Origin: a virus
Lineage: Duplodnaviria > Heunggongvirae > Uroviricota > Caudoviricetes
DNA: 7,834 bases
IMG/VR virus record: IMGVR_UViG_2681813313_000002
Strand: one strand, 5' to 3'
The notes beneath the pieces are model-generated. The model ran no database searches and was not told where the DNA came from. It saw only the letters and a program-made list of their open reading frames with translations. Both the position numbers and the translations under genes were made by a program. Shown one piece after another: positions 1,752 to 7,834 of the stretch (positions within the stretch are counted from its first letter, which is position 1; the number at the start of each line of letters is the position of its first letter).

Positions 1752-2510
1752 TTAAATTCTGGTCCTTACAATATCAACCTGAAGATTCTTATCTTGTGCT
1801 GATTGATAAATGACAAACCTTTTACTACCTGCATTGAAAGAAGTAGACAAAACCAGACAATTATCATAACGAGCAAGAACATAATACCAACCATCATTAT
1901 AATTAATCATTTCATATTCTTTCTTAAACTGTGGTTTGTAATATCCTGTCAGAAATGAAAAAAGCCAGAAATATGCCACAAAAGCAATCATCACAATCTC
2001 AAAAAAATGTTTTTTTATAAATGGCTTATCATAGAAGCATGATACCGATAAAAATCGCCCATAAGATCTTATCGAAATTGTAACCGCCAGCGCAATCGCT
2101 GCTGACAGTAGCAAAAGAGGTACCTGAATCTTCTGTCTCAATATAGAAAACTCAATAATTGCCGGCACAAACAATAATTCCACAGCAAAATAAAGGCGAA
2201 ATACATTTAGCTCTTGCATAGAATGTTTTCTTTTCACTGCGAAAAAGAATACAACACCAATACCCCAACCGATAAGAAATATAGCAATGACGATAACTGC
2301 AAAAAATAAACTTCTGGCAACATCATCAACACCTGCACCTACAATCCACCATGGGAAGCCGTAGTAAAAAGAAGTACCCCATCCATAGAAATAAGCACTC
2401 CCCCATCCAAGGCATCCCATGTAGGCAATAAAAAGTGAAGAACTCCTGAGCAGCGCACCATCCTTCATAACCACCCCAATACAAGATGATAACATTGGCT
2501 TACAACTCAT
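1752..2510 (-). CDS. Polytopic inner-membrane protein of unknown function (about 5 predicted TM helices plus an about 60-aa Tyr/Trp/Asn-rich C-terminal tail); AT-rich cargo gene
   Basis: 252-codon ORF, the only long ORF in the interval. Hydrophobic stretches read from the translation: LFIAYMGCLGWGSAYFYGW, LFFAVIVIAIFLIGWGIGVVFFFAV, LYFAVELLFVPAIIEFSIL, VPLLLLSAAIALAVTISI, FFEIVMIAFVAYFWLFSFL. Marked drop in G+C relative to flanking phage genes. No SD before the ATG at 2510; the in-frame ATG at 2468 (MKDGALL...) is preceded by GGGGTGG, so the true start may be 2468. I do not recognise the family. Confidence 0.6.
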   Translation of the reverse strand: MSCKPMLSSCIGVVMKDGALLRSSSLFIAYMGCLGWGSAYFYGWGTSFYYGFPWWIVGAGVDDVARSLFFAVIVIAIFLIGWGIGVVFFFAVKRKHSMQELNVFRLYFAVELLFVPAIIEFSILRQKIQVPLLLLSAAIALAVTISIRSYGRFLSVSCFYDKPFIKKHFFEIVMIAFVAYFWLFSFLTGYYKPQFKKEYEMINYNDGWYYVLARYDNCLVLSTSFNAGSKRFVIYQSAQDKNLQVDIVRTRI

Positions 2511-2659
2511 AACAAAAGCAATTCAATGCCGTCAAGAGGTTACAGGCTAAAAAAACTCTATTACATTGCAGTCAGCATGTTTACTACACAAATACAATTC
2601 AGAGCATAAAAACTACTCGGCGGCAGGTTATTGAGACTCATCAATGACATGTAAAAAAC

Positions 2660-2705
2660 GCCCATTATTGATGTCAAGTTTCCCCAAAGTTATTCAAAAA
2701 GTCAA
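2660..2705 (-). promoter_or_regulatory. Late promoter pR' with qut / sigma70 pause-inducing element (lambda-like)
   Basis: Minus strand reads ATTGCCACGGATGGCAACATATTAACGGCA-TAATATTGACTTTTTGAATAACTTTGGGGAAACTTGACATCAATAATGGG. This is nearly collinear with the lambda Q-to-pR' interval as I recall it (TTGACT -35, 17-bp spacer, -10 at the TAAATT position, then a -10-like AATAAT element in the initial transcribed region). It starts about 45 bp downstream of the Q stop. Confidence 0.7.
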
Positions 2706-2747: not shown

Positions 2748-3371
2748 CTAACGTGTGATCGCATTCAAAATGTTGTCTGCGATTGACTCTTCCTTGTGGC
2801 ATTGCACAACCAGAGCGTCATACAGCGGCTTAACAGTGCGTGACCAGGTGGGTTGGGTAAGGTTTGGGATTAGCATCGTCACAGCGCGATATGCGGCGCT
2901 TGCTGGCATTCTTGAATAACCGACGCCTTTACATCTTCCGCACTCTTTCTCAGCAACTATCCCCCACTGCTCTGTTTTGGCTATATCAACCGCACGGCCT
3001 GTACCGTGGCAATCTCTGCATCTTGCGCCCGGCGTAGCAGCACTACGGCAATAATCCGCATAAGCGAATGTTGCGAGCACTTGCAGTACCTTTGCCTTAG
3101 TATTTCCTTCGAGCTTTGCCACACCACGGTATTTCCCCGATACCTTGTGTGCAAATTGCATCAGATAGTTGATAGCCTTTTGTTTGTCGTTCTGGCTGAG
3201 TTCATGCTTACCGCAGAATGCAGCCATTCCGAATCCGGCTTGTGATTGCGCCATCCCCATAGCAGCCATCACATCAGTACCGGAAAGAGAGTCAGAAGCC
3301 GTAGCCCGTGGTGAGTCGCTCATCATCGGGCTTTTTGGCGAATGAAATTTAGCTACGCTTTCGAGTCTCAT
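2748..3371 (-). CDS. Q: Late-gene antiterminator Q (lambda-type Q)
   Basis: 207 aa. Translation MRLESVAKFHSPKSPMMSDSPRATASDS...CRDCHGTGRAVD...CGRCKGVGYSRMPASAAYRAV... matches lambda Q almost residue for residue from memory, including the Cys-rich zinc-binding motifs. ATGA overlap with ninH upstream. pR'/qut follows. Confidence 0.93.
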   Translation of the reverse strand: MRLESVAKFHSPKSPMMSDSPRATASDSLSGTDVMAAMGMAQSQAGFGMAAFCGKHELSQNDKQKAINYLMQFAHKVSGKYRGVAKLEGNTKAKVLQVLATFAYADYCRSAATPGARCRDCHGTGRAVDIAKTEQWGIVAEKECGRCKGVGYSRMPASAAYRAVTMLIPNLTQPTWSRTVKPLYDALVVQCHKEESIADNILNAITR

Positions 3372-3556
3372 CGTCTTCCCTTTTTGCCTGGCGTTACCAT
3401 CAGGACGCCGTTAACTATTACGTGACGCTCACCTTTGCTGTCTCGGTTGTACTTGAGCACTGTTCCTCTTGCGCAGGAAAGTATCCTTGCCACTTCGGTC
3501 TGATTACCTCGTGTCTGGATAAGAAGCTCTGGTATCGTTTGAATTGTGGCGTTCAT
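3368..3556 (-). CDS. ninH: NinH-like small DNA-binding protein
   Basis: 62 aa. IQTIPELLIQTRGNQTEVARILSCARGTVLKYNRDSKGERHVIVNGVLMV is collinear with lambda NinH (…KTIPDMLVEAYGNQTEVARRLKCSRGTVRKY…AIVNDVLMV). Start overlaps the rusA stop (ATGA). Confidence 0.85.
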   Translation of the reverse strand: MNATIQTIPELLIQTRGNQTEVARILSCARGTVLKYNRDSKGERHVIVNGVLMVTPGKKGRR

Positions 3557-3915
3557 ACGTTCTCCAGTTCGGTGATTTTTATTCCAAGCCGTCCGCCTGG
3601 TACTTTCACACCACGAATTACGCGAATGTCATCGAATTGCTCGTCGTCTTCCGCAAATCCGGCGTGGATAAGGGAGTCGAGTAAACCTTTCAGGATGTTA
3701 TCGAGGTCGCGGCGGCGGGAGTCTGGAACGTCTGCTATGACTTTGATGCGGAGTCGTGATTTGGTGAAAATATCTAACTTGAGTTGGTGGATGATTTGCT
3801 GAACGTCTTTTCGGTATTTCTGGCCTTTATCGCTGATGTAGTATTGGCTTCCCCGTCTTCGCCAGTAGGTATTCACCGACGGCGGGTATGGAAGCACAAA
3901 CTGATATTCGTTCAT
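3553..3915 (-). CDS. rusA: Holliday-junction resolvase RusA
   Basis: 120 aa. LPYPPSVNTYWRRRG, DVPDSRRRDLDNILKGLLDSLIHAGF and PGGRLGIKITE match the RusA family (E. coli RusA has …LPWPPSNNRYY…PDRRRRDLDNLQKA…KGGRL…). Coupled by ATGA overlap to the upstream gene. Confidence 0.9.
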   Translation of the reverse strand: MNEYQFVLPYPPSVNTYWRRRGSQYYISDKGQKYRKDVQQIIHQLKLDIFTKSRLRIKVIADVPDSRRRDLDNILKGLLDSLIHAGFAEDDEQFDDIRVIRGVKVPGGRLGIKITELENV

Positions 3916-4202
3916 GACTTAATCTTCCCCTCCTTCAGCAGTATCGCCTGCGTCCTGATTACGCCTTCGAGGTGGTAAAGTCTGGCGTCTTTGTTGTCGA
4001 GATTATGGGTGCGTCTGTCGATTTCATCGTGACACGCGCTACAAGCCCATGCGCCGATCAGGTCTTCAGGCTTCATTCCAGTTCCGCAAATTCCAGCCAT
4101 CCGGTAATGTGCCAGAACTGTAGTTTCAGGATTGCCATTGCATATGCCGTAAATACGAACCTGGCATTCTCTGCCGCGTGCTTCTTTGCGTAGGTTAGCC
4201 AT
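3912..4202 (-). CDS. ybcO: YbcO-like DUF1364 family protein (putative Zn-binding nuclease of the nin region)
   Basis: 96 aa with the cysteine pattern CQVR…CNGNPETTVLAH…CGTGMKP…CSACHDEIDRRTH, as remembered for DLP12 YbcO. Start and upstream stop overlap as TAATG. Confidence 0.7.
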   Translation of the reverse strand: MANLRKEARGRECQVRIYGICNGNPETTVLAHYRMAGICGTGMKPEDLIGAWACSACHDEIDRRTHNLDNKDARLYHLEGVIRTQAILLKEGKIKS

Positions 4203-4909
4203 TAAGCAGCCTCCCCTGTTACTTTCAGCATTCCGTTATCGAGCAGCTTTCTGGTCAGCCACTGTTGACCACGCCCGGTGATTTTTGTGGTGAACGATAT
4301 CTGTATTCCGTGATTTGTGTTGACCGCTGTTTCTTTCACTGTGAAATAGCCGCGCTCCATATATTCCTGCATTGGCACATTTCGCCGGGAACCTGAAGCA
4401 ATAAGGATTTTGTGATCACGCATCCACGCAAACAGTTTGTTTGGACCAATACCAACAACCTTTGCATAGTTTCCAATCAAAATTCCGCTGGCCTCGCCAA
4501 CGCGATCGGCAAACTCAACTTTAGGTGCGGCAATTGCGAGCTGGTTTTCTAGTTGCATTTTCTGCTCAGCAAGATCAGCAGCAAGGCGTAACGCTTCTGG
4601 TAGCGTTTTTGGGATATTAACCGCAGCTTCTTCAAGCTCTCGCCAACGGTCAACAAGACGAGCGGTGAATTCCGGCGACAACTGGGCAACGACAATAATG
4701 CTGTCGCGCTTACCTTGTTCTCCTTCGAAGATGTAATAGCTTACCGGTCGGCCTGCGGTGGGCTTCTCCCCCATTGGGGGAAAAGCTATTACACCTCGTC
4801 CCGCCAGTCGTTCAATAGATTGTTTCACCTTGTCATGACGACTTCCCACCAACTCAGCGATTTCAATGCTGGTCATTTTGATGGCGTTGCTATTTATCAG
4901 CTCATTCAT
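4202..4909 (-). CDS. roi: Roi-like phage regulatory protein / antirepressor (Rha-type N-terminal domain + KilA-C/ANT C-terminal domain)
   Basis: N-terminus IKMTSIEIAELVGSRHDKVKQSIERL resembles the Rha/pRha family. C-terminal half (…YAKVVGIGPNKLFAWMRDHKIL…GYF…) resembles the KilA-C/ANT domain. Position between ninB and Q matches roi in HK022-like phages. The ORF starts at 4915, but GAGAGG sits 8 nt before the second ATG at 4909, which is the more likely start. Confidence 0.7.
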   Translation of the reverse strand: MNELINSNAIKMTSIEIAELVGSRHDKVKQSIERLAGRGVIAFPPMGEKPTAGRPVSYYIFEGEQGKRDSIIVVAQLSPEFTARLVDRWRELEEAAVNIPKTLPEALRLAADLAEQKMQLENQLAIAAPKVEFADRVGEASGILIGNYAKVVGIGPNKLFAWMRDHKILIASGSRRNVPMQEYMERGYFTVKETAVNTNHGIQISFTTKITGRGQQWLTRKLLDNGMLKVTGEAA

Positions 4910-4942
4910 TGTCATGTCCTCTCATATTGAAAATTCAGCAAT

Positions 4943-4970
4943 AAAAAACCCAGCCGAAGCTGGGTTTGTT
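4943..4970 (-). terminator. Rho-independent terminator (hairpin with U-tract on the minus strand; weaker in the plus direction)
   Basis: CCCAGC-cgaa-GCTGGG stem at 4949..4964, flanked by an A-run (4943..4948) on one side and TTTGTT on the other. Lies between the 355-aa gene and the roi-like gene. Confidence 0.6.
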
Positions 4971-5032
4971 AAGTTGTCAATGGTCAGTAGTAATGCAGTG
5001 AAGGAGGTAAACTTACGCTGAAGGATTTGTAC

Positions 5033-5055
5033 AAAAAAACCACCTGAAGGTGGGT
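5033..5055 (-). terminator. Rho-independent terminator immediately 3' of the 355-aa gene
   Basis: Minus strand: CCACC-ttca-GGTGG hairpin followed by TTTTTTT, beginning 6 nt after the stop codon at 5061..5063. Confidence 0.65.
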
Positions 5056-5060
5056 TACTG

Positions 5061-6074
5061 TTACTTGTCTGAATCATCCAGTTCGTCTGTTTTCACATCC
5101 TCAAACCTTGGATGCAGGCGATTCATTTTTGCAATAAAATCTGAATAGTCGTTAGATAGCTTCATAATCGTAACGGTTGATGACAGATGCTCTCTTAATT
5201 TTTGATATCCAATATTTGGCGTCAGCCCCTGAAACAACTTTGTACCTTTTGAGGCCTTTACGTTCTGCTTTTTAAGCTCCTCAAGGATGTTTGGTGCCAA
5301 TCTCTTGTAGACGATATCATTTGTCAAAACGCCAAAATACTGAGGCCGGAAGCGGGGATTTTCCGGCGGGTATTCTAAGCCCCTTAACCTGAAAAGCTCT
5401 TCATAATAATCAGCAGGAAATGTTGTAATATAAGGTTGAATTTCCTTTGCGACAAAGGCCTCGAGTATTTTGGCGAGCGCATCTTTTTCTCTATCTCGCT
5501 GGTACCCCGTCGCTTCATCAACAAGCGCTATTATTCCGACTTTAGCTAATGAGCGCACCAGAATTTCAGCTTTCTTGGCTGTCTCTAACTGGTTTGGCCT
5601 GGTGATAGCGCCTGCCTCTCTTGCCTTTAAATAAACATCGCAGACAAGAGGTATTATGGATGCGTCATAACCTTCCTGGACGGAGCCAGTAATCGTCTTG
5701 TATTTGACCTTATTGATCACATCCATAACATCTTGATTTATATATTTTTTAAGGTTTGCAGCATCCATAAAAGCGGGCATATTGATCACCCCCTCTTCTT
5801 GAGGTGCTCTACCCCCTCTTTGTGGTCGGCCAAATGCTTTAAAAACAGAAGCTTGTGATATGATACGCCGTCCATTTTCGAGAACCGCGACATCTAATTC
5901 CGCATCACCGATCTTTAACTTTCCCTCATTCGCAGATACGGGCAATAAAGCTTTTTCTTTTTTTGCGGCAACAGCCTTTCTTGAGGATTCTTTTCTTTGC
6001 TCTGCTGTCATTTTTGCCGCGCGTGCCTTACCGCCTTTGGCCTTCCCACTAACATCATCATTTTTCATGAGCAT
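5061..6074 (-). CDS. Phage cargo protein, tentatively P63C-domain family, with a Lys/Ala-rich basic N-terminal tail; function unknown
   Basis: Long ORF whose body (…GRRIISQASVFKAFGRPQRGG…GIIALVDEATGYQRDRE…) recalls P63C-domain phage proteins; this is from memory, not a search. N-terminus KAKGGKARAAKMTAEQRKESSRKAVAAKKEKA is strongly basic. The ORF-track start at 6128 is rejected because 6100..6128 is a promoter/operator; translation probably starts at ATG 6074 (MLMKNDD) or 6068 (MKNDD). Confidence 0.6.
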   Translation of the reverse strand: MLMKNDDVSGKAKGGKARAAKMTAEQRKESSRKAVAAKKEKALLPVSANEGKLKIGDAELDVAVLENGRRIISQASVFKAFGRPQRGGRAPQEEGVINMPAFMDAANLKKYINQDVMDVINKVKYKTITGSVQEGYDASIIPLVCDVYLKAREAGAITRPNQLETAKKAEILVRSLAKVGIIALVDEATGYQRDREKDALAKILEAFVAKEIQPYITTFPADYYEELFRLRGLEYPPENPRFRPQYFGVLTNDIVYKRLAPNILEELKKQNVKASKGTKLFQGLTPNIGYQKLREHLSSTVTIMKLSNDYSDFIAKMNRLHPRFEDVKTDELDDSDK

Positions 6075-6099
6075 ATCTCGTGTTGTGATTGATAAGTCA

Positions 6100-6145
6100 A
6101 TCATACACATGCACGTTGTAACGTGCAATATTTAAATATGCACGT
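6100..6145 (-). promoter_or_regulatory. Sigma70-type promoter (TTGCAC-17 bp-TATGAT) overlapped by three copies of a 7-bp TGCACGT/ACGTGCA operator-like motif
   Basis: Minus strand: -35 TTGCAC (plus 6128..6123), a 17-bp spacer, -10 TATGAT (plus 6105..6100). TGCACGT occurs at 6110..6116 and 6139..6145 and its reverse complement ACGTGCA at 6121..6127. Sites 1 and 2 form a perfect 8-bp-arm inverted repeat, TGCACGTT-gt-AACGTGCA, covering the -35 and spacer. Confidence 0.55.
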
Positions 6146-6291
6146 AAATTGCGAATCAGATAATGAGGAGACTTTCTCCCCCTTGCACTGACATCATGGT
6201 ATTCTGCTCAAAACTAAATTTCTGGAGCGTTTCGTTGGAAGGTATTTGCAGTTTTCGCAGATTATGTCGGTGATGCTTCGTCGCTGTCGTC

Positions 6292-6702
6292 TCATTCGTA
6301 CCTCCTGTCGGTAAATCTGACACCCTGACCAATAGCCCAGGCTGTTGTGTACTCGATCAGACTTGCCATACGCTTCACGCTCATCTGCGCGCTGCTTTCG
6401 CGAATGTTGACGTATTCGCCTTCAAGCCCGGGCAAAACATCAGCTTCCTGCTTTGTTGCCACTGCATGACCGCTAATCAACAAAACCTTCCATTGTTCTG
6501 GTTTTAACCACTTATCGCACCATTGAACCTGACGTGCGATATCCGCCAGCATCGCGTGAAATTTTGCGTTCTGGTCAAGGTTGCGCTTGTAGTCAGTAAT
6601 GCGGATGGTGACTGGCTTGTCTTTATCGAGAGGAGTTGCGAGGATGGCGTTGATTGCGGCTTGCTGTTGTTGCTTAGTTCGGAGGAAGATTGTTTGCTTC
6701 AT
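6292..6702 (-). CDS. ninB: NinB (Orf-family recombination mediator)
   Basis: 136 aa. Architecture MK…QQQAAINAI…[33 protein letters not shown]…WLKPEQWK… parallels lambda NinB (…RSLDQNRKLWACLGDVSRQVEWHGRWLDAESWK…). AAGGAG SD 7 nt upstream of the ATG. Confidence 0.85.
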
Positions 6703-6704
6703 CG

Positions 6705-7037
6705 TTACTCCTTCACTTTGACTTCAGCGGCTATGATGGCTTTCATCACTGCAATTACCGTTTTGTCCTTCCCATCCTCATGCCCCATCGCATAAGCGCC
6801 TTCTTCGCCACCTTTCCAAAAGTTGTCATTCGATTCGGGCCAGTCGATATCCAGTTCAATAGCTGCTCGCGATGCCTGCCACGTTTGCCAGTGGCCTTGA
6901 ACATCGTCCATCACGTATTGACCACCAATATTACCGCTGCCAATTTCATGGTGATTTTCAGGGTAACGGATAAGGTCTGAGGATTCGCCTCCACGTCGCA
7001 ACCAACTTTCTTCAAACTGCTTTCTTGATTCGTCCAT
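6705..7037 (-). CDS. Hypothetical acidic phage protein (110 aa, Trp-rich, net negative charge)
   Basis: ORF with GAGGA SD about 11 nt upstream of the ATG. Its stop lies 2 nt before the ninB start, and the stop of the upstream 68-aa ORF is adjacent to its SD, an operon-like arrangement. By my count about 22 Asp/Glu versus 12 Lys/Arg. No family recognised. Confidence 0.55.
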   Translation of the reverse strand: MDESRKQFEESWLRRGGESSDLIRYPENHHEIGSGNIGGQYVMDDVQGHWQTWQASRAAIELDIDWPESNDNFWKGGEEGAYAMGHEDGKDKTVIAVMKAIIAAEVKVKE

Positions 7038-7054
7038 CGATACTTATCCTCAGT

Positions 7055-7261
7055 TCAACTCACAAAACGCCACGCCATTTTTGCTACAGCGACAGGCGCA
7101 ACACCGATAATCACCCACAGGAGAATGCTACCGAAAAGCACACCCACCAGGTCTTTACCTTCGCCTACCAACCGGACAAAACTTCCGACAACCGCAATGA
7201 ACGTCGACACCATCCACATAGCACCGAGAATCCTCAATGCAGAGAAAATTAACTCAGCCAC
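7055..7261 (-). CDS. Small two-helix membrane protein (68 aa, GTG start)
   Basis: GTG start preceded by GGGGGAGAG about 10 nt upstream. Two hydrophobic segments (LIFSALRILGAMWMVSTFIAVVGSFV and LVGVLFGSILLWVIIGVAPVAVA). Other genes are on the same strand; the overlapping plus-strand ORFs 7025..7252 and 7125..7316 are low-complexity and unsupported. Confidence 0.45.
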   Translation of the reverse strand: MAELIFSALRILGAMWMVSTFIAVVGSFVRLVGEGKDLVGVLFGSILLWVIIGVAPVAVAKMAWRFVS

Positions 7262-7624: not shown

Positions 7625-7834
7625 ACACTTGCTCCTTTCAGTCCGAACTTAGCTTTGATTTCTGCGATCTTCGCCAGAGCCTGTGCACGATTTAGAGGTC
7701 TACCGCCCATGACAGGAAGTTGTTTTACTGGTTGAACCGCCCCGGGTTTCCTGGAGAGTGTTTTATCTGTGAACTCAGGCTGCCAGATCATCGTTTCCGA
7801 TGGAAGCATAATAAGCTTTTTCTGCTTCTGCCGG
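7621..7834 (-). CDS. C-terminal part of a phage early protein (5' end beyond the right window edge); identity unknown
   Basis: The minus-strand frame stays open from the window edge (…RQKQKKLIMLPSETMIWQPEF…) to the stop at 7621..7623, so the ATG at 7809 given in the ORF track is probably internal. Confidence 0.4.
   Translation of the reverse strand, partial: RQKQKKLIMLPSETMIWQPEFTDKTLSRKPGAVQPVKQLPVMGGRPLNRAQALAKIAEIKAKFGLKGASV

Follow-up and report, generated by a model that had tools for sequence, protein, structure and literature searches.

In Shiga-toxin phages, the slot between the late antiterminator gene Q, with its promoter pR′, and the esterase gene nanS-p is occupied by stxAB, an AT-rich cargo which Q is able to drive and which encodes a secreted toxin. 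In phage 434 (OL657226), a cassette upstream of nanS-p carries a gene annotated as a ‘putative membrane protein’ (CPT_434_68) together with a ‘TciB-like’ gene (CPT_434_69). Relatives of the phage 434 membrane protein have been catalogued outside of phages, including TfpB of Moraxella bovis and M. lacunata, for which the gene lies between pilin segments (in M. lacunata by Piv), and STM1630, a chromosomal gene of Salmonella. The gene considered here is located at positions 1752–2468 (minus strand) of a 7,834-nucleotide stretch of DNA (the window; IMG/VR virus record IMGVR_UViG_2681813313_000002) and encodes a TfpB-family inner-membrane protein in the position that stx1AB holds in Stx1a phages. 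The window is part of a lambdoid Escherichia coli prophage with all genes on the minus strand, which is also the strand of every window feature listed below, and its gene order along transcription (Pfam) is NinB, a P63C-domain protein, a KilAC/Rha antirepressor, YbcO, RusA, NinH, a lambda-type Q, the cargo region, and an esterase. As the cargo gene is already catalogued, in phage 434, as STM1630, and on Shigella and enterotoxigenic E. coli (ETEC) virulence plasmids, its detection is no discovery.

A preliminary description of the window had found no motif in the cargo protein that could be assigned to a known family, a statement that no longer holds. On profile, length and motif, the protein clearly belongs to Pfam PF27470 (‘TfpB’) and PHROG 1521 (function unknown; E = 2e-154, residues 31–252), and it is homologous to both Moraxella tfpB and STM1630. 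PF27470, a newer Pfam family, is carried by the cluster of 100% identical proteins and by all 103 homologues of the cargo protein found in a large protein collection; scans with a Pfam release that did not include it, with NCBIfam and with PADLOC gave no match to the cargo protein and nothing consistent among 25 family members. The protein possesses the features of the family, including a length of ~240 amino acids, an N-terminal AY.YGWG...YYG.PWW motif, five transmembrane (TM) helices, and a C-terminal beta domain. Its likeness to Moraxella TfpB spans the full length (27% identity to M. bovis TfpB over residues 9–236, tblastn, E = 2e-19, and profile matches), the length class, and the N-terminal motif, while the two genes differ in location, with the Moraxella gene set between pilin segments and the window gene in the late slot of a prophage. 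A profile search of 1.84 billion representative proteins returned only 73 matches, indicating that the TfpB family is small, with members in the Enterobacterales, Moraxella, the Neisseriaceae (Neisseria dumasiana, N. arctica, and Conchiformibius), and the Pasteurellaceae (Actinobacillus, Gallibacterium, Avibacterium, Pasteurella, Aggregatibacter, Glaesserella, and Mannheimia). In the literature, ‘TfpB’ mostly denotes an unrelated Acinetobacter PilB-like ATPase.

By several sequence measures, the cargo open reading frame (ORF) is a real, conserved gene and not a chance ORF. The frame is intact and has 103 homologues, and the ratio of nonsynonymous to synonymous substitution rates (dN/dS) is 0.05–0.20 when calculated against its counterparts in phage 2B8, E. 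albertii, and an Escherichia sp. It was described as AT-rich compared to its phage neighbours, and the difference is pronounced, with a G+C content (GC) of 36.3% (30.5% at third codon positions) compared to 48.5–55.4% for Q, ninH, rusA, ybcO, ant, and nanS. The 252 codons first attributed to it correspond to the maximal ORF (1752–2510), and the PGAP call is 247 amino acids, but nearly all full-length homologues are 236–238 amino acids in length and start at the residue aligned with M15. Further, the first ATG (2510) falls within the −10 hexamer of a predicted promoter. For both of these reasons the product is most likely a protein of 238 amino acids from M15 (ATG at 2468) rather than one of 252. 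The promoter in question is a predicted sigma-70 promoter with an extended −10 (2506–2535; TTGACG at 2535–2530, an 18-nucleotide spacer, and TGtTATGAG at 2511–2506), for which the −35 and extended −10 are kept upstream of a 59% identical copy on ETEC plasmids, where the flanking DNA is no longer alignable. A promoter scan returned an alternative candidate (2515–2486; TTGTTA-18-TATCAT), and either candidate would place the transcript start between the first ATG and M15.

Upstream of the cargo gene, the lambda-type Q and lambda-like pR′/qut that had been proposed are both confirmed. The Q gene (2748–3371) encodes 207 amino acids with the Pfam domain Antiterm (PF03589, E = 1e-57) and shares 98.6–100% identity with its counterparts in phage 2B8 and the prophage of E. 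coli E2348/69. The pR′ promoter with its qut site (2705–2655) consists of a −35 element (TTGACT, 2705–2700), a −10 element (GAAACT, 2682–2677), and a following −10-like pause element (AATAAT), and aligns nearly base for base with the annotated PR′/qut of HK630 and lambda to approximately +20, with divergence beyond; by analogy with lambda, transcription would start near 2670. Downstream, the 5′ part of a NanS-p-type sialate O-acetylesterase gene (1–1208; DUF1737 and SASA domains, Pfam) runs off the window and is 97.3% identical in DNA sequence to the yjhS/nanS-p located directly 3′ of stx1AB in an Stx1a phage (LC567821). The preliminary description had placed the cargo gene at the stx-equivalent position above such an esterase gene, and because the nanS-p gene is shared with Stx1a phages that have stx1AB immediately upstream, this equivalence is shown and goes beyond analogy. 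The cargo gene is found downstream of Q/pR′ and upstream of nanS-p, with atypical composition, and as a replaceable cargo, though it has no sequence or functional relation to stxAB and encodes a membrane protein where stx encodes a secreted toxin.

The same cassette, or diverged alleles of it, occurs behind three types of Q, the lambda-type, a Q82-like type (phage 434), and a PF06323-type, with the allele behind the PF06323-type Q occupying the same slot at 56% identity. Together with the AT-rich composition, this bears out the description of the gene as horizontally acquired cargo in the toxin slot. In phage 434 the protein is 100% identical, and the DNA is ~99% identical from the terminator ahead of the gene to nanS-p; the two loci differ in that phage 434 combines a Q82-like Q with an intact terminator, while the window combines a lambda-type Q/pR′ with a degenerate one. 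That remnant of a tR′-type terminator (2607–2627; 4-bp stem, T5) has a folding energy of −5.1 kcal/mol (z = −0.15), compared to −13.3 kcal/mol (z = −3.6) for its annotated counterpart ahead of the phage 434 cassette (3482–3507 of the phage 434 stretch examined). A terminator scan found none between pR′ and the cargo ORF in the window, and the first strong terminator downstream of pR′ is that of a small RNA (sRNA) at 1321–1303. As the upstream terminator is degenerate in the window, read-through from pR′ into the cargo gene is probable. Amongst phages the gene is rare, present in only 2 distinct isolates out of 50,697 records, neither of them an Stx phage.

Most family members lie outside of phages, where TfpB genes are stand-alone and low in GC, and several adjoin genes for toxins, effectors, or adhesins. 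On ETEC plasmids, the 59% identical homologue is divergently oriented ~870 bp upstream of eltA, with STb ~3 kb away and all of these genes between insertion sequence (IS) elements (~3000–5714 of the stretches examined). Homologues were found on 106 Shigella invasion plasmids, including pWR100 of S. flexneri (57% identity, IS-flanked; 6001–6717 of the stretch examined), and one of the plasmid records (CP006737) names the gene ‘TfpB protein’. The homologue of Citrobacter rodentium adjoins lpxR in the same chromosomal islet, and phage 434 likewise has lpxR just upstream of Q. The homologue of Glaesserella parasuis adjoins cdtABC (5001–8044 of the stretch examined), that of Mannheimia (M. haemolytica) is beside a YadA-type adhesin gene, and a homologue in a Klebsiella prophage is located in an accessory region beside umuDC and a reverse transcriptase gene. 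In the Pasteurellaceae and Neisseriaceae (Conchiformibius), orphan low-GC islets occur between housekeeping genes.

Pilin genes accompany only the Moraxella copies. The M. lacunata homologue has a partial pilin gene on one side and a complete one (MNAQKGFTLIELMIV...) on the other, next to a Piv-type recombinase, while in M. bovis it was recovered on a 1.9-kb contig with two pilin 3′ segments as flanks, a locus that we take to be the classical tfpQ/tfpI-tfpB-piv inversion region from which the family is named. Amongst the Moraxella loci with sufficient flanking DNA, complete pilin genes were found near tfpB in M. lacunata, M. equi, and M. oblonga; none occurred within 5 kb at the other 22 genome loci scanned. 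The window contains no pilin-like ORF, and its TfpB gene does not lie in a pilin cassette. The tfpB of M. lacunata NCTC10359 (5001–5588 of the stretch examined) is a truncated ORF of 195 amino acids compared to 261 in M. bovis (491–1276 of its stretch), and the M. equi copy has in-frame stops; by sequence, tfpB copies in pilin cassettes may often be inactivated.

Experimental data come from STM1630 of Salmonella, a 717-bp gene adjoining sseJ for which a published deletion primer encodes NSSMLLAYLGGLGWG. Its product has the same length as that of the window gene (238 amino acids, 46% identity), and both genes are AT-rich and stand-alone, each with a promoter of its own (predicted in the window). 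They differ in that STM1630 is chromosomal, bound by H-NS, induced in macrophages and under conditions for Salmonella pathogenicity island 2 (SPI-2), and has reported mutant phenotypes. STM1630 was described as a gene of unknown function located between steB and sseJ, both effector genes, and bound by H-NS (Canals et al. 2019, PMC6785131, S1 Text), with its own promoter driving expression in SPI-2-inducing medium and in macrophages (PMC6785131). It belongs to the set of genes co-regulated with SPI-2. Two single-nucleotide polymorphisms in its −10 box silence the gene in sequence type 313 (ST313). In calves and chicks, signature-tagged mutants showed attenuation, and deletion in strain 4/74 resulted in higher replication inside macrophages (PMC6785131).

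The cargo protein had been described as a polytopic membrane protein, and it possesses five hydrophobic helices that form a five-TM model. An AlphaFold2 model based on a 63-sequence alignment (predicted local distance difference test [pLDDT], 79; predicted template modelling score [pTM], 0.73) places helices at residues 3–36, 47–79, 84–111, 116–137, and 155–181 and a five-stranded beta domain at residues 187–232; a first model based on 31 close homologues (pLDDT, 60) was poor and was discarded. Based on the charge bias across the family (N-terminus, +1.0; loop1, −1.3; loop2, +1.8; loop3, +0.4; loop4, +1.7), the N-terminus is predicted to be cytoplasmic, with the TM1–TM2 loop and the C-terminal beta domain in the periplasm. 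The best conserved part is TM1 and the TM1–TM2 loop, an aromatic- and glycine-rich region with the consensus SS..AY.G.LGWGSAYFYGWG.SFYYGFPWW, and the central TM3–TM4 region is variable across the family. R91 (conservation, 0.94) is the sole charged residue conserved family-wide, while R52 (0.81) is conserved in most TfpB members and not in the Klebsiella subfamily. Overall, the top conserved positions hold aromatic residues, Gly, Pro, Ala, or Ser, with no Asp, Glu, or His among them, and these residue types favour a role in binding or scaffolding over that of an enzyme. On this sequence evidence, the enzymatic form of the ‘envelope modification’ suggested in the preliminary description is weakened, and the data are best matched by a non-enzymatic part in the envelope or in interaction with the host. 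A fold comparison against solved structures and viral models returned nothing beyond generic helix bundles.

The reading that we prefer, and to which we would give an even chance, is that the cargo gene encodes a lysogenic-conversion protein of the envelope, self-promoted and non-catalytic, carried in the toxin slot and without a part in the phage life cycle. It is favoured because the N-terminal motif has been kept, at great evolutionary depth, among hosts whose phages are unrelated, because a catalytic signature is absent, because the gene is stand-alone and self-promoted, and because its neighbours are recurrently genes for colonisation or virulence, with STM1630 regulated alongside virulence genes. 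The gene would form part of a self-contained AT-rich moron cassette, comprising the TfpB gene, a DUF3927 gene, and an sRNA similar to PasD/STnc100 that carries the first strong terminator. In the lysogen, the TfpB gene would be transcribed from its own sigma-70 promoter; read-through from pR′ probably also reaches it in this prophage, with Q providing a boost after induction. The pR′ promoter of lambda is constitutive. If this were also the case for the window pR′, its transcripts could extend, even in the absence of Q, through the TfpB gene, the DUF3927 gene, and the sRNA, and nanS-p and the lysis genes would depend on Q. More tentatively, the TfpB protein may bind, on the outer side of the inner membrane, a conserved partner that is either embedded in the membrane or periplasmic, and this binding could conceivably alter the behaviour of the envelope or of surface appendages in ways relevant to host colonisation.

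Several points weigh against a role in lysogenic conversion. The fold comparison against solved structures and viral models provided no match to guide a mechanism. The own promoter, the start site, and the topology are predictions, and since the phage 434 cassette is preceded by a good terminator, read-through from pR′ is not general. The association with virulence loci may be a mere clustering of AT-rich acquired DNA. For STM1630, the phenotypes are modest and growth in LB is unaffected (PMC6785131); the hypermotility reported in one screen is absent among the phenotypes reproduced with clean deletions and was not used here.

A broader proposal, which we regard as speculative, is that TfpB proteins are mobile single-gene modulators of colonisation or virulence, carried along with cassettes for toxins, effectors, adhesins, and pilins (the stx slot, eltAB, cdtABC, sseJ/steB, lpxR, YadA, and tfpQ/I) across four families of mucosal pathogens. 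Their target could be a conserved partner in the inner membrane, for example the helices of pilins or pseudopilins, a sensor kinase, or a platform for secretion or appendages. If so, the prophage copy would change host-interaction traits of lysogens amongst enteropathogenic (EPEC) and enterohaemorrhagic (EHEC) E. coli. A widespread uncharacterised protein sits at the position of Shiga toxin, and scattered ‘hypothetical proteins’ of enteric and respiratory pathogens are united as one testable target.

The main rival to a conversion role, possible though considerably less probable, is that the protein mediates superinfection exclusion or abortive infection, blocking DNA entry or killing the infected cell in the manner of SieA, Imm, RexB, or HK97 gp15. 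A polytopic inner-membrane protein with a periplasmic domain, carried as a prophage moron, is consistent with such a function, as are the diverged alleles (56–68% identity) that share the slot after different Q genes, the variability of TM3–TM4, and the reverse transcriptase gene beside the Klebsiella subfamily in its prophage accessory region. The Moraxella copy in a pilin locus can be read in the same way, given that phages use type IV pili as receptors and that certain accessory genes of pilins defend against phages. However, the motif in TM1 and the following loop is near-invariant from Moraxella to E. coli, which points to a conserved host partner and not to a fast-evolving phage target, and many of the copies are chromosomal orphans co-regulated with virulence genes. 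PADLOC gave no match for the window protein and only scattered matches (E > 0.01) for 4 of the 25 family members, the PHROG offers no function, many copies are found outside of phages, and only 2 distinct isolates amongst the 50,697 phage records carry the gene. Exclusion and abortive infection thus receive no positive support.

A role as a pilin or pseudopilin accessory protein, doubtful on present evidence, is a more specific variant with weaker support than exclusion. Here TfpB would associate, within the inner membrane, with the hydrophobic helix at the N-terminus of type IV pilins or of type II secretion pseudopilins and tune filament assembly, comparable to TfpY/FimB of Pseudomonas aeruginosa and Dichelobacter nodosus. 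The founding family member lies inside the Moraxella pilin inversion cassette, and TfpY-like proteins likewise span the inner membrane several times and have their C-terminal domain in the periplasm, interact with pilins, and are encoded adjacent to pilins as is Moraxella TfpB. The copy beside eltAB in ETEC can be counted here as well, as the eltAB product leaves the cell by type II secretion. The comparison with TfpY/FimB is one of architecture only, and within it the modelled five TM helices of TfpB contrast with only three in TfpY/FimB, where the periplasmic domain is of mixed alpha/beta type and the C-terminal fold differs. The restriction of pilin neighbours to the Moraxella copies, with none at the other 22 loci, also counts against this role.

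Two further explanations are very unlikely. As the first ORF after pR′, membrane-embedded and upstream of the lysis genes in related phages, the gene could be imagined as a late lysis accessory (holin, antiholin, or lysis timing) transcribed from pR′ alone, but Pfam and PHROGs gave no match to a holin or structural family, a protein of 238 amino acids with a folded periplasmic domain is unlike holins, a separate class II holin gene lies downstream in phage 434 and the E2348/69 prophage, and most family members are outside of phages. Equally improbable is a decaying or silent remnant that is functionless in this prophage, for while H-NS silencing is the usual fate of such AT-rich DNA and STM1630 is silent in ST313 (PMC6785131), the ORF is intact under a low dN/dS, the protein is identical to that of phage 434 (DNA ~99%), and the module is 100% identical in some E. 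coli genomes.

Downstream of the TfpB gene, the preliminary description had reported a terminator, which does exist and is strong, but the description overlooked a gene in between, and the terminator belongs to a PasD/STnc100-like sRNA element. The overlooked gene (1508–1666) encodes a small membrane protein of 52 amino acids with two helices and a DUF3927 domain (Pfam, E = 1.4e-14; PHROG 1470). Its ‘TciB-like’ label derives from tciABC of phage P1, a name resting on the similarity of TciA to TerB, and says nothing about the function of the DUF3927 protein; a reading of ‘tci’ as a colicin-tolerance locus of phage 434 was rejected, as papers trace the TciB name to P1 tciABC. The DUF3927 gene accompanies only the 434-type cassette and is absent beside many TfpB homologues, and the idea of an obligatory TfpB partner was rejected on this basis.

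This candidate sRNA corresponds to a structured element of 206 nucleotides (1292–1497) that ends in an intrinsic terminator (stem at 1321–1303 followed by T8, with the T-run to 1293; −17 kcal/mol, z = −2.85). The element matches the Rfam family STnc100 (RF02076) over its full length, with a score below the gathering score (37.7 bits compared to 47; E = 1e-6), and an identical element in E2348/69 adjoins a holin gene. Between that element and the holin gene of E2348/69 there is a weak match to Rfam Esr41 (7646–7735, minus strand, of the stretch examined; 32 bits compared to a gathering score of 102). A 2026 preprint describes PasD1 and PasD2 as abundant Hfq-bound sRNAs of EPEC that are STnc100-like by cmscan and are located no more than 10 kb from LpxR and from a PF03589 Q, often with Esr41 nearby; PasD1 adjoins the holin operon, PasD2 is upstream of the gene for a sialic-acid esterase, and PasD is abundant in uninduced EPEC. 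Because the context fits that published for PasD, with an identical element next to a holin gene, the esterase, and Esr41 nearby, the window element is very likely pasD, by analogy in the PasD2-type arrangement upstream of an esterase gene. The abundance of PasD in uninduced EPEC shows that lysogens transcribe the cassette, at a minimum at its 3′ end. The cassette is now tied to an abundant Hfq-bound sRNA, the upstream genes of which had not been discussed. The copy of the element in phage 434 carries a 1-nucleotide indel, and its terminator stem shows a compensatory change. An overlapping ORF of 44 amino acids with a lipobox (1262–1396) was considered as a gene and is probably non-coding, based on the frameshift that this indel causes in phage 434 and on the Rfam match.

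The module is widespread in E. coli. Several E. coli chromosomes match the 1.36 kb from 1400 to 2760 at 100% identity, EPEC E2348/69 and O26:H11 strain 11368 match it at 99.8%, and at least 80% of this stretch was found in 682 of 5,426 complete E. coli genomes (~1 in 8), with carriers of most of the module including E2348/69 and O26/O103 EHEC. Elsewhere in the window, the P63C-domain protein gene (5061–6128; 355 amino acids) between ninB and the antirepressor gene has a lower GC of 42.7% and possibly constitutes a second cargo within the nin region. A strongly hydrophobic ORF (7055–7261) upstream of that region encodes 68 amino acids with two predicted helices and has a marked GC skew.

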